Assembly (NCBI GenBank): GCA_024683775.1 | Contig: GCA_024683775.1_4106.1 | Reading direction: 5' to 3' (one strand) | Length of the DNA: 64,000 nt | Source: a phage | Shown here: positions 6,594-11,400 of the stretch, piece by piece | Numbering within the stretch: position 1 is the stretch's first letter | Layout: every line of letters starts with the position of its first letter | Program-made: the position numbers and the translations under genes | Notes under the pieces: generated by a model | Told to the model about the DNA's origin: nothing | The model's database searches: none | The model's input: the letters and a program-made list of their open reading frames with translations, nothing else

Positions 6594-6935
6594 ATGACTA
6601 TCTCAATTGCTCAATCTAACTTTGAAAATGAAATCATCGCCCAGGCACTGCGTTTAAATGATGGTCGGGCCGAAATTAATTACGGTTTCAATTCAGGCGG
6701 TTGCGAAAACTATCAGTACTTTGTAACGGCTGATGGCGGTGTCCTGGGTATCAATACAGTTATTGTAAACATCCAAAAAATTAATTTCAATGATCCAGAC
6801 GATAGCCAGTTTTACATCACTGGCGTAGACGTGAACTATGAGGATGACTCACTAACTGATGATTACACTGGCGAGCGGTTAGAAAGTGCATACGGTGAAG
6901 ATGATTATCAGTCCGGTCCAGAAGATTTCGAATAA
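6594..6935 (+). CDS. hypothetical acidic protein (113 aa)
   Basis: ORF; promoter, hairpin GGGGAAACGGTTTCCCC and SD upstream. Confidence 0.7.
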   Translation: MTISIAQSNFENEIIAQALRLNDGRAEINYGFNSGGCENYQYFVTADGGVLGINTVIVNIQKINFNDPDDSQFYITGVDVNYEDDSLTDDYTGERLESAYGEDDYQSGPEDFE

Positions 6936-7028
6936 TATAAAAAAATAGTTTGACAATAGATTATAGTACTGTATAATGTTTTACATGAAGGGGAGAATAG
7001 TTCTCCCCACTAACAGAGAGAAAACAAA

Positions 7029-7241
7029 ATGGCTAATATCTGCACTGTACTGAAAAATGCAAAACAAGTTTTATTTTCTGATCACGATCATTTAAACAAG
7101 GATATTACTGGCGTTCGGAATATCAAAGATGTAAAAAGTGTTATGGGTATCTATTGCAATATGAAACGTGTCGGCACGTTCGGCGATAAAGTACTATACC
7201 AGGCAGGGGATTACAATTTTACACTGACTATCATTAACTAA
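7029..7241 (+). CDS. hypothetical protein (70 aa)
   Basis: ORF; promoter TTGACA...TATAAT, hairpin and SD upstream. Confidence 0.7.
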   Translation: MANICTVLKNAKQVLFSDHDHLNKDITGVRNIKDVKSVMGIYCNMKRVGTFGDKVLYQAGDYNFTLTIIN

Positions 7242-7324
7242 AAATATTATCACAGTACTATTGACATAGTTTTATAGTACTGACATAATAACTTTTATCA
7301 ACTACACTACTAAGGAATTAAAAA

Positions 7325-7504
7325 ATGGCTATCATCGCAAAAACTGAAATCGTTGGTCTGGATTCTATCATCATGACGTTTGAAGATCAAAAAGGTATGT
7401 ATGTAGTTTCATATGGTGATTATGTTCGGGAGTATGAAACGGTAGACGAAGCCTTTGAAAGTTATATTCGCCAGGTGAATAAAGCATACGACGACTACCG
7501 CTAA
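7325..7504 (+). CDS. hypothetical protein (59 aa)
   Basis: ORF not in track; type-III promoter and SD AAGGAA upstream. Confidence 0.55.
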   Translation: MAIIAKTEIVGLDSIIMTFEDQKGMYVVSYGDYVREYETVDEAFESYIRQVNKAYDDYR

Positions 7505-7594
7505 AATATATTACCAGTACTATTGACATTGTTTGATAGTACTGTATAATAAGTTTTATAAACAGTAGTTAACTTAACCTAAGAGAGAAATAAA

Positions 7595-7738
7595 ATGATC
7601 GCACTGGATTCATTCATCGACGCAGTACTGGCAAAAACTGGCGAGGATCTGACCGCAGAACAATACGCGATGATCGAGCAATGTCAGCAAAACGGTAAAT
7701 CGGTGAAAGATACTGTTAAGATTATCCGCAAGATGTAA
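7595..7738 (+). CDS. hypothetical protein (47 aa)
   Basis: ORF not in track; promoter and SD AAGAGAGA upstream; hairpin downstream. Confidence 0.5.
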   Translation: MIALDSFIDAVLAKTGEDLTAEQYAMIEQCQQNGKSVKDTVKIIRKM

Positions 7739-7759
7739 TATTATAGCCCACTGGTTAAC

Positions 7760-7767
7760 GCTGGTGG
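7760..7767 (+). other. Chi octamer GCTGGTGG
   Basis: Exact match inside the hairpin after CDS 7595. Confidence 0.8.
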
Positions 7768-7837
7768 GCTATAATCATTTACCCTATACAATGCCAGTAC
7801 TCAACCGTTTATCTCGTTAGAATGCGTTACAGGACGT

Positions 7838-8041
7838 TTGACAATGATTAGCATGAAATCAGTACAAAAACAAATAGAAACATTATCAAAAATTAAACGT
7901 AAACAGTACTCGTTAGAATATACAATCAATGGTAACTATCATCTAATGAAAGAGAATAATTTCATTGTCATTGATGAATCATTGCAAGTTATTAGTATAG
8001 TACTGAAAGCATTAATCAATGACAGAAAAAAATTAAAATAA
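7838..8041 (+). CDS. hypothetical protein (67 aa)
   Basis: ORF only; no clear promoter cassette or SD. Confidence 0.35.
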   Translation: MTMISMKSVQKQIETLSKIKRKQYSLEYTINGNYHLMKENNFIVIDESLQVISIVLKALINDRKKLK

Positions 8042-8268
8042 TCTATTGACAATATCCTCCAGTACTGGCATAATACTTACATCAAGACGAGAACGTCACT
8101 AACCCATAGGGTGCACAAATGTAACTATATAATATCGATCAATAAATGATCAAAAAGTACTGGATCAATTTAGCATAAGGCGTATAATTCTGATCAATTC
8201 TTGATCAAAGGCAATATACGCAGTTGAATTTATATAGACAGTACAAAGGCGTTACTATCCGTGGTAAT

Positions 8269-8276
8269 GCTGGTGG
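8269..8276 (+). other. Chi octamer GCTGGTGG
   Basis: Exact match read in sequence. Confidence 0.8.
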
Positions 8277-8369
8277 ATATGTAGTATCATATGGTTTGAA
8301 TAAGATAAACACTAGTAGTATTATTGTAGCATTACAGTACTATAGTATTTTTATAATGAGGTTAAAATA

Positions 8370-8627
8370 ATGGCAGTAGGATACGCGAAAGACGGGGCCG
8401 AACAAGACGAGATTCACGCAGTGATTCAGGCAGCCGTTAACCACGCTAGAAAGCAAATTAACGCACAAAGAGAATCACTGGTACATTGCCTCGACTGCGG
8501 CGATAAAATCCCTGAGAATCGACGCCAGGCCGTTATAGGGTGCATGTATTGTATTACTTGCCAGGAGGATCATGATAGTACTTTTAAAAGAGATCCGCGT
8601 AATTGTTGGCATAGATCTATGAGATAA
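8370..8627 (+). CDS. TraR/DksA-family C4 zinc-finger protein (85 aa)
   Basis: CxxC-17-CxxC spacing (CLDCG...CMYCITC) near the C-terminus as in TraR/DksA proteins; SD TGAGG upstream. Confidence 0.7.
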   Translation: MAVGYAKDGAEQDEIHAVIQAAVNHARKQINAQRESLVHCLDCGDKIPENRRQAVIGCMYCITCQEDHDSTFKRDPRNCWHRSMR

Positions 8628-8690
8628 AAAGTATTGACAGTACTGAAAGATAGTGTATAATGTTTTATATCTTAACTGAGGATAGTAATC

Positions 8691-9047
8691 ATGGGAATAC
8701 AACATATCACGCGTACTACTGACAATGGCGAGATCACTGGTTATCAGGTACAGGGCAAAGTAGCACAATTGCAGTACTGGTTTGTTAAACGTGGAATCAT
8801 TGCACCGGATCTTGATTATGACCGTGTAGCGTTTATTGATTCTCTTTATGTTGATCCTGATAGTCGGGGCAATGGTGAAGGTAACGAATTAATGAATGCC
8901 TTTATTGATGCCGCCGATGATTCAGATTGTATCATCTTAGAATGCGATACGGGAGAAGATAACGCCTTTAATCTTAAAGAATGGTACGAAGGTTTCGGAT
9001 TCGAGGTACTGATCGATAGTGAATATCCTATCATGATTTTATCATAG
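8691..9047 (+). CDS. GNAT-family N-acetyltransferase-like protein (118 aa)
   Basis: Motif LYVDPDSRGNGEGNELMNAFI resembles the GNAT acetyl-CoA binding motif A; promoter and SD upstream. Confidence 0.6.
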   Translation: MGIQHITRTTDNGEITGYQVQGKVAQLQYWFVKRGIIAPDLDYDRVAFIDSLYVDPDSRGNGEGNELMNAFIDAADDSDCIILECDTGEDNAFNLKEWYEGFGFEVLIDSEYPIMILS

Positions 9048-9125
9048 TACTTGCATTTAGTTTTCAGTACTGTTATAGTACTTGCATCAAGGGGAAACAT
9101 CTTCCCCTACTAAGAGGAAATAAAA

Positions 9126-9314
9126 ATGGAAAACTTATCAAGTATTTTAGTACAAGATGATTTCGGTAATCCTGGAAGTGCTATCATTGTTCGGGGCAAT
9201 AAAGCAACGTTTGTTATTGCTGGTGGACCCGTACAGCGTAGCATTAAAAATAATGCTGTTACCATTAATAATGTACGCTATCGCTTAGATAAAGAATTAA
9301 TTCATAAACTGTAA
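9126..9314 (+). CDS. hypothetical protein (62 aa)
   Basis: ORF; hairpin GGGGAAACATCTTCCCC and SD AAGAGGAAA upstream; contains a Chi octamer. Confidence 0.65.
   Translation: MENLSSILVQDDFGNPGSAIIVRGNKATFVIAGGPVQRSIKNNAVTINNVRYRLDKELIHKL
9219..9226 (+). other. Chi octamer GCTGGTGG
   Basis: Exact match read in sequence. Confidence 0.8.
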
Positions 9315-9399
9315 AAAAGTACTGGACAATAGATTATAGTACTGTATAATAGTTTACATGAAGGGGAGAAATGATTCTCCCCACTAAGAGGAAAGAAAA

Positions 9400-9612
9400 A
9401 TGCAAGGTCAACTAATCGTTCGTAAATGGTCTGATACTAACGAAAAACCGTGGGATGTACAATACATCGCCCCAAATGGTGAATCCAGATATCAACCAGG
9501 TGTAACGCATAGTACTGAGCAATTCGCCGCCGCTCATCGCGAACGTCTGTTACAATCAATGCAGCACGGTTCCGGTGAAAAATTCATTCAGGATCATTGG
9601 CTGAAAGATTAA
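9400..9612 (+). CDS. hypothetical protein (70 aa)
   Basis: ORF; promoter, hairpin GGGGAGAAATGATTCTCCCC and SD upstream. Confidence 0.7.
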   Translation: MQGQLIVRKWSDTNEKPWDVQYIAPNGESRYQPGVTHSTEQFAAAHRERLLQSMQHGSGEKFIQDHWLKD

Positions 9613-9698
9613 AAAGTACTTGCACAGTACTGAATAAAGTGTATAATGTTTTATATCGGAAGGGGAATAGTTCCCCTCCTAACAAAGAGGAAAGTATA

Positions 9699-9872
9699 AT
9701 GGTCCAGGTAGAATTAACAGTACTGAAAGATCTGTTTTATCGGATTGGTACTACTGGCGAATATCCGAAGGGTGATAATGCAAAACTTTACGTATCACTC
9801 GACTTATGGCAACGCGAACAATTAGCAACGGCCTGGCGTAAAGGCAAAGCAGATAGCGAGGTGAAAGCATGA
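9699..9872 (+). CDS. hypothetical protein (57 aa)
   Basis: ORF; promoter, hairpin and SD AAGAGGAAA upstream; trimmed from track ORF 9597. Confidence 0.6.
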   Translation: MVQVELTVLKDLFYRIGTTGEYPKGDNAKLYVSLDLWQREQLATAWRKGKADSEVKA

Positions 9873-10018
9873 AAGAATTCTTATTTGAAGTAGTGTTTCA
9901 AGGTGTCGGTAATAACCAACTGATTCGATCAAGTGGTTATAATGTTAACCAGGCATGGAATAACATTAAACAAATGTACCCGAACGCTATCACATATCGC
10001 AACCCGAAAGAAGTTTAA
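9869..10018 (+). CDS. hypothetical protein (49 aa)
   Basis: ORF not in track; ATGA overlap with previous stop. Confidence 0.45.
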   Translation: MKEFLFEVVFQGVGNNQLIRSSGYNVNQAWNNIKQMYPNAITYRNPKEV

Positions 10019-10024
10019 AAATAA

Positions 10025-10112
10025 TTGAAAAAGGGATTGACTCCGGTCAGTCCCTTTGCTATTATATACGCATAGAAACAAATTAGCCCACCGGGTGCAT
10101 AAATGTATCTAT
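10025..10112. repeat. composite intergenic repeat, copy 2
   Basis: Terminator hairpin AAAGGGATTGAC-TCCG-GTCAGTCCCTTT overlapping TTGACT-17-TATTAT, then conserved box CCCACCGGGTGCATAAATGTATCT. Confidence 0.7.
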
Positions 10113-10117
10113 TGTTT

Positions 10118-10125
10118 GCTGGTGG
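10118..10125 (+). other. Chi octamer GCTGGTGG
   Basis: Exact match just downstream of repeat copy 2. Confidence 0.8.
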
Positions 10126-10166
10126 CTAGTACTATCAAGTACTGAAAACTATTTTTAAAAAAGTAC

Positions 10167-10194
10167 TTGCAAAGTATCACGATAAGCGTATAAT
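10167..10194 (+). promoter_or_regulatory. sigma70-like promoter (TTGCAA-16-TATAAT)
   Basis: Hexamers read directly; upstream promoter of a duplicated double-promoter leader. Confidence 0.6.
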
Positions 10195-10282
10195 GTTTTA
10201 CATCAGGACGGGGAACGAAATAAGTAACCCCGTTAAGTAGTCCAGGAGTAAGACATACGAAAAACTCCCCTGATAAAATAGT

Positions 10283-10310
10283 TTGACAATAGAAAGTAAA
10301 CGAGTATAAT
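10283..10310 (+). promoter_or_regulatory. sigma70-like promoter (TTGACA-16-TATAAT)
   Basis: Consensus hexamers; about 30 nt upstream of CDS 10344. Confidence 0.65.
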
Positions 10311-10343
10311 ACTTACATCAACCACTGATAAGGAAACATTAAA

Positions 10344-10619
10344 ATGCGGACTTTACTTACAGCTAACGAAATCGAGCAAGTACTGACTACTAATCTGGAA
10401 CAATGGAAACGTGAAGCAGATATCCAGGCGGTTCAATGCCTTAACGATAAGTTAACGCCAGATGACTTAAGCACGATTGTTGATCCACAATTTTATGAAG
10501 ATATTCACGACACGTCTTTAAGCGTCGAGGATGTACTTGATAAGCACTACATTGATACTGATTTACATGTTTACGGTCGTAAAAACTTTATCACTATTCA
10601 CGACATTTACAATACTTAA
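10344..10619 (+). CDS. hypothetical acidic protein (91 aa)
   Basis: ORF; double-promoter leader and SD AAGGAA upstream. Confidence 0.7.
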   Translation: MRTLLTANEIEQVLTTNLEQWKREADIQAVQCLNDKLTPDDLSTIVDPQFYEDIHDTSLSVEDVLDKHYIDTDLHVYGRKNFITIHDIYNT

Positions 10620-10707
10620 GTATTGACAAAGTATCTTAGTACTGTATAATAGTTTACATCAAGTGAGGGGAAACGGTTCCCCTCCTAACAAAGAGAGAGA
10701 AATTAAA

Positions 10708-10890
10708 ATGGCTAAGTGCACTATCTGTAAGAAAGAAATCGTATTAGTTCCAAGTGCCCGTGAACGTGCCGCTCGGTTCGGTGGCAAAGCGTCAGACTAT
10801 ACAAAAATGTTTACTGCCCATGCAGCTTGTCAAGTAGCAAAACGTTCACAAGAAAGCGTAGAATTAATGCGTAAACTTTCCAAAAAATAA
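10708..10890 (+). CDS. hypothetical protein (60 aa, CxxC plus HxxC)
   Basis: ORF; promoter, hairpin and SD upstream; trimmed from track ORF 10663. Confidence 0.65.
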   Translation: MAKCTICKKEIVLVPSARERAARFGGKASDYTKMFTAHAACQVAKRSQESVELMRKLSKK

Positions 10891-10977
10891 GTATTGACAA
10901 AGTATCTTAGTACTGTATAATAGTTTACATCAAGCGAGGGGAATGGTTCCCCTCCTAACAAAGAGAGAGAAATAAAA

Positions 10978-11301
10978 ATGGCTATGATCCTTACCCAGAA
11001 AGTAGAACTGAAAATTGTAACCTCCTTTGACATTAAAGTTAATCGGTGGACTGATAGCCACGGCAATACTTACCACTCCTGCTACGTGTCCGCATTGATT
11101 GGTGATCGCTGGGAAGACCTGGGACACGAAACCTTTACATACGGTTACGGCACACAAGGTGAGTACACGGGTTTAGAAATCATTAAGGAAACTGTAATAG
11201 GTTTCAACCCGAAAGAGAAAGTACTACACAGAATTGAGAAAGAGATCAACAAAGAAATTACAGTTCGCTACTACGATGTAAAACGTAAGAAAGACATGTA
11301 A
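10978..11301 (+). CDS. hypothetical protein (107 aa), paralog of CDS 4490
   Basis: ORF; upstream cassette almost identical to that of CDS 10708; shares motifs with CDS 4490. Confidence 0.7.
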   Translation: MAMILTQKVELKIVTSFDIKVNRWTDSHGNTYHSCYVSALIGDRWEDLGHETFTYGYGTQGEYTGLEIIKETVIGFNPKEKVLHRIEKEINKEITVRYYDVKRKKDM

Positions 11302-11400
11302 TAGAATCCATTTAAAGTACTATTTGACATTGCCCAGATAGTACTTTATAATAGACTCTAACTTGTAGTACTAATTAACTTAACTAATAGGATGTACACC

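Follow-up and report, generated by a model that had tools for sequence, protein, structure and literature searches.

A YbiI-type zinc-finger protein and a minimal GNAT acetyltransferase, two candidate host-directed proteins encoded in the terminal repeat of a jumbo coliphage (Asteriusvirus)

In a stretch of 64,000 nucleotides (nt) of phage DNA (contig GCA_024683775.1_4106.1 of the NCBI GenBank assembly GCA_024683775.1; the whole stretch is called the window here), two adjacent small genes on the + strand encode a zinc-finger protein of the DksA/TraR family and an acetyltransferase of the GNAT family. They occupy positions 8370-9047, limits which were given in a preliminary description of the window and which correspond exactly to the ATG of an open reading frame (ORF) of 85 amino acids (aa) and the stop codon of an ORF of 118 aa. 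That description regarded the pair as candidate genes for host takeover, and the comparisons presented here make such a role plausible for both proteins. On balance, we favor the view that they are two separate accessory genes, situated in a cassette region with early-type promoters within the terminal repeat of an Asteriusvirus genome, and that the zinc finger would be directed to RNA polymerase and the acetyltransferase to a host protein.

Two small proteins with recognizable folds

The first gene (8370..8627, + strand) encodes an 85-aa C4 zinc-finger protein of the DksA family, of the YbiI/TraR type. The protein scored 36.9 bits (E = 3.7e-9) against Pfam PF01258 (zf-dskA_traR), for which the cut-off is 24.9, and matched PHROG 54, 'DksA-like zinc-finger protein', with E = 8e-19. 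Its best solved relative is YbiI of E. coli (2KGO, E = 2.4e-11), which aligns from Met1, and TraR (6N57/5W1S) ranks after YbiI (phmmer E = 5e-6). The zinc domain and the helix preceding it are homologous to those of TraR, the hhalign match (98.5%, E = 1.5e-15) covering residues 21-71 only. In the pair of zinc knuckles, C40-x2-C43 and C61-x2-C64 (8487..8561, + strand; CxxC-x17-CxxC), none of the four cysteines varies among 17 homologues, and the N-terminal sequence M-A-x-G-[FWY]-A-K-D-G-A-x-Q is invariant across the phage and bacterial members (individually, M1, A2, G4, A6, K7, D8, G9 and A10). The ratio of non-synonymous to synonymous divergence (dN/dS) is 0.08-0.25 across Asteriusvirus (six or seven genomes), which indicates purifying selection.

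Relatives of this protein were found in 954 phage records, including those of the lambdoid Orf73 type, and the homologues form three groups, namely, those of Asteriusvirus, those of T4-like phages and the bacterial YbiI. The T4-like homologues are 62-72% identical to the window protein and have the C-terminal tail FKRxPRNCWHRSMR in common with it; one of them is orf95 of JS98, located between mobD.3 and mobD.1 in the T4-like tk-mobD region. The bacterial YbiI homologues are 88 aa long, show ~45-60% identity and end in a different tail. The sequence comparisons thus place the protein in the YbiI branch rather than in the TraR branch of the DksA/TraR family. The tail itself (residues 72-85; 8583-8627) is invariant from Asteriusvirus to the T4-like phages, is absent from the bacterial YbiI and has a PHROG of its own, phrog_25948, to which no function is assigned. 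With phage JS09, tblastn gave a match to residues 47-85 only, the end of the protein that bears the tail.

The second gene (8691..9047, + strand) encodes a protein of 118 aa, a small size among GNATs, that exceeded the cut-offs of three Pfam models: PF00583 (Acetyltransf_1; 37.2 bits against 20.7), PF13508 (33.5 against 27) and PF13673 (26.3 against 23.6). The match to PF00583 is limited to the C-terminal half of the profile, from position 53 of 116. An AlphaFold2 run on the single sequence gave an unusable model, with a predicted local distance difference test score (pLDDT) of 47.6; a run with an alignment of 39 sequences (pLDDT 94.4) was used instead, and the structure matches of this model also point to a GNAT. 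The predicted topology is strand-strand-helix-strand-helix-strand-helix-strand-strand, in which two strands and one short helix (residues 25-33) precede strand 4 and the usual pair of helix 1 and helix 2 is absent. The protein therefore has the GNAT fold but not the full N-terminal arm (strand 1 and helices 1 and 2), which shapes the acceptor site; because of this reduced arm and the half-profile Pfam match, we call it a mini-GNAT.

In the model, the acetyl-CoA motif lies between the strand of residues 45-54 and the helix of residues 63-74. This is GNAT motif A, R59-G-N-G62-E-G64 (8865..8882, + strand; general form R/Q-x-x-G-x-G/A), the loop that binds the pyrophosphate of acetyl-CoA. Tyr99 (codon 8985..8987, + strand), the motif-B tyrosine within WYE..GF, aligns with the F-Y of Naa50 and of AAC(3)-XI in a PDB profile search, and we take it to be catalytic, as is general in GNATs. 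Two residues, G64 and Y99, are invariant in the 39-member alignment, and G17, Y18, R59, G62, L83, D86, L95, W98, F104, P113 and M115 are kept in at least 90% of the members. The conservation of R59, G62, G64 and Y99 shows that the loop for acetyl-CoA is intact and that the tyrosine of motif B is in place, and a dN/dS of 0-0.13 across Asteriusvirus (again six or seven genomes) indicates purifying selection here as well. We consider it very probable that this is an active enzyme specific to phages.

Both folds had been proposed in the preliminary description, and both are borne out: each protein lies above the curated Pfam cut-offs, and the profile scores, together with the purifying selection, place the two assignments far beyond chance. 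The folds are not new in themselves, as 'DksA-like zinc-finger protein' and 'GNAT family N-acetyltransferase' are already public annotations. What is added here is the recognition of the zinc finger as YbiI-type, without the canonical TraR tip, of the GNAT as a minimal, AcrVA5-like member of a polyvalent-protein family, and of the two genes as independent cassettes, with a toxin-antitoxin reading set aside.

A HMMER search of 1.84 billion representative sequences yielded 290 relatives of the mini-GNAT at E up to 1e-3, 44 of them at E up to 1e-10, and most of these relatives are 118-140 aa long with a full-length match. Some, however, are terminal domains in larger proteins that also carry PARP/ART, ParB_N, ASCH or DUF5661 domains; P0064 consists of GNAT, PARP and ParB_N, P0076 of DUF5661 and GNAT, and P0068 and P0097 of ASCH and GNAT (the ASCH matches are under the Pfam cut-off). 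It was in this exhaustive search that the family surfaced: a word-indexed homologue search returned Asteriusvirus copies only, a profile re-search of the indexed database with the family returned 12 proteins, and a related-locus search with the single protein returned only phage 121Q. In a set of 50,697 deposited phage genomes, members were confined to Asteriusvirus and two phages of ~146 kb, Shigella phage SF1-1 (95.8% identity; 1501-1857) and Klebsiella phage 05F01 (47%). The protein is 100% identical in 18 Asteriusvirus records in which the flanks differ by up to 10%. This complete identity despite diverged flanks, and the 95.8% identity in an unrelated phage of ~146 kb, suggest that the GNAT gene has spread horizontally and recently as a single-gene cassette. 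Phage-like surroundings made up of small unknown ORFs were seen for two metagenomic members of the family: HNH and RNase H genes lie nearby in the first case, RtcB and a nucleotidyltransferase gene of the poly(A)-polymerase family (PF01743) in the second.

Terminal repeat and promoters

The 4 kb surrounding the locus are 98.5% identical to Escherichia phage fEgEco12 and 90-98% identical to ~20 other coliphages of ~350-380 kb in the genus Asteriusvirus, among which are 121Q, SP27, phAPEC6 and vB_Ec-M-J. By this similarity, the window is assigned to an Asteriusvirus jumbo coliphage. Position 7000 of the window corresponds to position ~10043 of fEgEco12, whose direct terminal repeat of 20,993 bp is confirmed by restriction digests (PMC13070987), and the record of vB_Ec-M-J has an annotated repeat (1-21525) that spans the equivalent of the locus. 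Both genes are thus located inside a direct terminal repeat of ~21 kb. A fall in G+C from ~0.39 to ~0.31 near 18-20 kb of the window is consistent with the boundary of this repeat.

Up to position 16.3 kb, the window has 20 near-consensus sigma-70 promoters, defined by at least 11 of 12 matches to TTGACA/TATAAT; every one of them is on the coding (+) strand, and 11 have the perfect sequence. On the + strand of the following 47.7 kb there are 14. A first part that is dense in promoters and higher in G+C recalls the pre-early region in the terminal repeat of phage T5. One perfect promoter (TTGACA-16-TATAAT, 12/12 matches; 8634..8661, + strand) starts 7 nt past the zinc-finger stop codon, 30 nt ahead of the ATG of the GNAT gene. 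The nearest strong promoter 5' of the zinc-finger gene is a putative one at 8046..8074 (+ strand; TTGACA-17-CATAAT, 11/12 matches, with TG ahead of the -10), which falls in the repeated module families D1/D2. No terminator-like site was seen between the two genes, and transcripts of the zinc-finger unit may read through into the GNAT gene, in addition to those from its own promoter. Given the consensus sigma-70 promoters and the position in the terminal repeat, transcription by the host polymerase early in infection appears well supported by context. The designation 'early genes' in the preliminary description is accordingly plausible, on the contextual basis of the ~21 kb terminal repeat and the dense promoters.

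A 48-aa ORF with a TTG start (8224..8370, + strand) lies immediately upstream of the zinc-finger gene, and as its stop codon overlaps the zinc-finger ATG (TAATG), the two are probably translationally coupled. This ORF corresponds to g029 in the annotation of fEgEco12 and to gp293 in that of 121Q, is absent from phAPEC6, matches PHROG 38664 (function unknown) and shows purifying selection (dN/dS of 0.13 against 121Q). Just 5' of it is a degenerate copy of the promoter module (TGGATC-16-TATAAT; 8161..8188, + strand), with 3/6 matches in the -35; repeat family D9 aligns this copy with promoter-like copies at 9604-9647 and 10151-10194.

The promoters of the region belong to a repeated module in which the promoter is followed by a short 5' hairpin, next by a ribosome-binding site and finally by an ATG. 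The module, of ~90 nt, recurs ahead of many small genes at ~6900-11400 of the window (for example, at 6940-7035, 9313-9402, 10613-10714 and 10884-10984), and its parts occur in the order AAAAAGTACT, TTGACA, AGTACTG, TATAAT, TTTACAT, a GGGGA...TCCCC hairpin, CTAA..GAGG and ATG. The hairpin is in the 5' leader and no T-run comes after it; it is probably a stabilizing or processing element, not a terminator.

Downstream of the 8046 promoter and ahead of the 48-aa ORF, five GATC sites, mostly as TGATCAA, are clustered in 70 bp (8138-8207), overlapping the promoter copy at 8161-8188, against a window average of 2.25 per kb. A similar cluster exists in SP27, and it could represent an operator or a Dam/SeqA-sensitive control region of the zinc-finger transcription unit. 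A regulatory RNA in the leader (8081-8235) was also considered and rejected: an Rfam search of this segment gave nothing at E up to 1, and the fold z-score of -1.64 indicates no notable structure. Promoter module, GATC-rich leader and 48-aa ORF together make up a 329-bp cassette (8042-8370) flanked by a 9-nt direct repeat, TTAAAATAA. The cassette is precisely missing from phAPEC6 (compared region 1155-1195), in which the zinc-finger ATG overlaps the stop codon of the upstream gene, and it looks like a unit gained or lost via recombination at short repeats.

In a PHROG scan of the neighborhood (6.5-10.6 kb), every gene except the zinc finger and the GNAT fell in PHROGs of unknown function, so that these two stand out merely by their recognizable folds. 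A 113-aa ORF at 6594-6935, weakly matched to PHROG 18452, is named 'DNA ligase' in vB_Ec-M-J, and a 47-aa ORF at 7595-7738 is named 'tail fiber protein' in fEgEco12. Both names look doubtful, because the ORFs are far too small for either function. With positions 7000-11000 as a megablast query, matches were also obtained to records whose names refer to phages of Campylobacter (5), Salmonella (8), Acinetobacter and Klebsiella, and to Phapecoctavirus and Justusliebigvirus; such matches may reflect small-gene cassettes in common or mislabelled records.

Possible functions and their alternatives

We propose that the zinc-finger protein would bind the secondary channel of the host RNA polymerase soon after infection, in the manner of TraR, Orf73 and (weakly) YbiI, and that it might shift transcription off ribosomal and growth promoters, so that more polymerase becomes available to the many consensus promoters of the phage. 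Five phage homologues of TraR, including Orf73 of lambda, bind RNA polymerase and reprogram transcription; they inhibit ribosomal RNA promoters and complement a dksA-null strain, and an N-terminal DxxDxA is required for the activity of both TraR and Orf73 (PMC9239242). According to Blankschien et al. ('data not shown'), over-expression of YbiI rescues a dksA mutant from its amino-acid auxotrophy (PMC2613031), and our literature search on ybiI found no functional study beyond that one. The zinc domain of TraR contacts the rim of the secondary channel, and the phage protein has a homologous domain. In addition, we observed that D8 and E11 of the phage members form an acidic pair (D8-x-x-E11) spaced like the two residues of DxxD.

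Several points weigh against the functions proposed for the two genes. In the zinc finger, DxxDxA is not in register (without gaps, D3, D6 and A8 of TraR correspond to A6, G9 and E11, in the local sequence AKDGAEQD), and residues 72-85, apparently an unrelated tail, do not align with TraR, in which a C-terminal helix contacts the beta-subunit lobe/Si1. The NCBIfam equivalog model of YbiI, NF008243, was matched over residues 1-73 only and at 78.6 bits, under its cut-off of 96, and YbiI is itself a protein without an established function, its dksA rescue being known from that single unshown result. The zinc-finger gene has no strong promoter directly 5', the nearest being ~295 nt off, with the GATC-rich leader and the small ORF in between; moreover, no transcriptome or promoter analysis was found in a search of the Asteriusvirus literature, which leaves 'early' a contextual term. 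As for the GNAT, the best PDB sequence matches include enzymes acting on small molecules, AAC(3)-XI and phosphinothricin acetyltransferase.

It is worth weighing whether the YbiI branch acts on a partner other than RNA polymerase, with the phage-specific tail binding something else, a possibility that we consider doubtful. The first 20 residues of the phage protein do not align with TraR and contain no DxxDxA, and its tail, which is kept in Asteriusvirus and the T4-like phages, differs from that of the bacterial YbiI and matches a PHROG apart. However, the zinc domain is clearly homologous to the rim-contacting domain of TraR, the over-expression of YbiI has been reported to relieve the dksA auxotrophy, and the acidic pair is retained in the phage members. 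Polymerase binding is, by analogy, the most likely function of the zinc finger, although moderately so. Binding to the secondary channel is less well supported than the preliminary description, which speaks of TraR/DksA-type proteins in general, would suggest: the type is that of YbiI, and the DxxDxA is absent in register. Because of the divergent N-terminal tip and the phage-specific tail, the effect on transcription may differ in detail from that of TraR.

The mini-GNAT would acetylate a lysine or the N-terminus of a host protein, and this target may belong to the transcription or translation machinery or may be an immunity protein, as in the case of AcrVA5. The narrower view, that it is an anti-defence enzyme of the AcrVA5 kind which modifies a host immunity protein and not the transcription or translation machinery, seems unlikely to us. 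AcrVA5 (PDB 6IUF) is among the closest solved structures (Foldseek TM-score of 0.76, normalised to AcrVA5), it lacks the helix-1/helix-2 region just as the mini-GNAT does, it acetylates and thereby inactivates Cas12a (bioRxiv 10.1101/2021.11.16.468554), and the polyvalent proteins in which the GNAT family occurs have been assigned to phage-host conflict by Iyer et al. (PMC5512222). The relatedness in sequence is, however, marginal (hhalign 81%, E = 1.2e-5, over 65 columns with 18% identity), the identity of 18-22% concerns the cofactor-binding half only, and two uncharacterised bacterial GNATs, 1Y9W and 2G3A, match slightly better than AcrVA5. No defence-related context was found, the PADLOC models giving no meaningful match. 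Since Cas12a is, to our knowledge, not normally carried by E. coli, an AcrVA5-like target would have to be something other than Cas12a.

We also regard as improbable that the mini-GNAT acetylates a small molecule (a polyamine, an aminoglycoside-like compound, an amino acid or a nucleotide-sugar) instead of a protein. The top PDB sequence matches are to AAC(3)-XI and to phosphinothricin, puromycin and glucosamine acetyltransferases, and the sub-threshold NCBIfam matches include resistance enzymes, but these matches span only the generic cofactor-binding half (profile ~50-120), and in polyvalent proteins the family is joined to effector domains that are directed at protein and DNA. Iyer et al. 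(2017) described a polyvalent-protein GNAT family of gammaproteobacterial phages, for which an ART neighbor is typical and solo versions exist, placed it in the RimI-like protein-modifying clade and predicted that it modifies proteins (PMC5512222). From the shared architecture, we infer that the window GNAT belongs to this family. For the acceptor of the mini-GNAT, a protein is, by analogy, the better guess.

A joint and more specific reading of the two genes is, in our judgement, distinctly unlikely. The mini-GNAT would be a new type of AcrVA5-like counter-defence or takeover effector, delivered either from an early solo gene or as a domain of an injected polyvalent protein, which inactivates one E. 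coli protein (an immunity factor or a component of RNA polymerase or of the ribosome) by a single acetylation, and the YbiI-type zinc finger would provide a second, DxxDxA-independent mode of engaging RNA polymerase.

From their distribution and divergence, the two genes are taken to be independent cassettes and not a conserved or co-evolving pair. The T4-like phage JS98 has the zinc finger without a GNAT neighbor, the zinc finger is missing from SF1-1 and 05F01, which do have the GNAT, and the adjacency of the two is limited to Asteriusvirus. Between the window and vB_Ec-M-J, synonymous divergence (dS) is 0.36 for the zinc finger and 0.057 for the GNAT, which points to a recombination breakpoint between the genes. 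It is highly improbable that they form a functional couple, either a toxin-antitoxin-like pair, with the small upstream protein as partner of a GNAT toxin, or one in which the zinc finger would tether the GNAT to RNA polymerase. In favor of a couple, both genes lie side by side on one strand without an intervening terminator, and the succession of a small gene and a GNAT superficially resembles the TacA/TacT and AtaR/AtaT loci. Against it, a perfect promoter lies between them, the discordant dS reveals recombination between them, their adjacency is confined to one genus, the upstream protein is a TraR-type zinc finger and not an RHH/DUF1778 antitoxin, and in Foldseek the GNATs of the toxin type (AtaT, TacT and 7BYY, 'bacterial toxin') come only at ranks 40-48. 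A toxin-antitoxin system of the TacAT or AtaRT kind was thus rejected for want of such an antitoxin, for the intervening promoter and for the pairing being absent in SF1-1, 05F01 and JS98.

Significance and comparison with known systems

A host-directed reading of these early-type genes is reasonable, and similar ones have been proposed before for the GNATs of jumbo phages (PMC7824862) and for the phage homologues of TraR (PMC9239242). If it is true, two more very small proteins would reprogram the host in the first minutes for a giant virulent phage, one as a binder of the polymerase channel and the other as a one-step modifier of protein. With its compact size, high conservation and repeated use in polyvalent proteins, the mini-GNAT family seems a tractable candidate for a new acetylation-based activity in host shutoff or anti-defence. 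Also of practical value is the YbiI branch, which is present in E. coli itself as well as in the 954 phage records.

The zinc finger is similar to YbiI of E. coli in its ~50% identity from Met1, in the common MAxG[FWY]AKDGA motif and in the CxxC-x17-CxxC zinc site. It differs from YbiI in the tail, for which YbiI has GYNRRGSKDSQLR, and at position 11, which is Glu in the phage members and Val in the bacterial YbiI. In comparison with TraR, the N-terminal tip is three residues longer. TraR and Orf73 are likewise small proteins encoded by mobile elements, and lambda orf73 raises the phage yield 3-4 fold (PMC9239242); these two, however, come from a plasmid or a temperate phage, whereas the zinc finger described here is from a virulent jumbo phage.

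The polyvalent-protein GNATs of Iyer et al. and the window GNAT have an architecture in common, in that full-length homologues of the latter are fused to PARP/ART, ParB_N and ASCH, but the window GNAT stands alone, preceded by a promoter of the early type, and is not a domain of a large protein. The published precedent for the idea put forward in the preliminary description is Rac, an acetyltransferase that phiKMV-like Pseudomonas phages aim at host transcription (Ceyssens et al. 2020, as cited in PMC7824862); like the mini-GNAT it is a phage GNAT, and its resemblance to the mini-GNAT is conceptual only. AcrVA5, which is like the mini-GNAT in its reduced N-terminal arm, differs from it in being 92 aa long and in lacking the N-terminal G-x-x-G-Y hairpin that is conserved in the window GNAT family.

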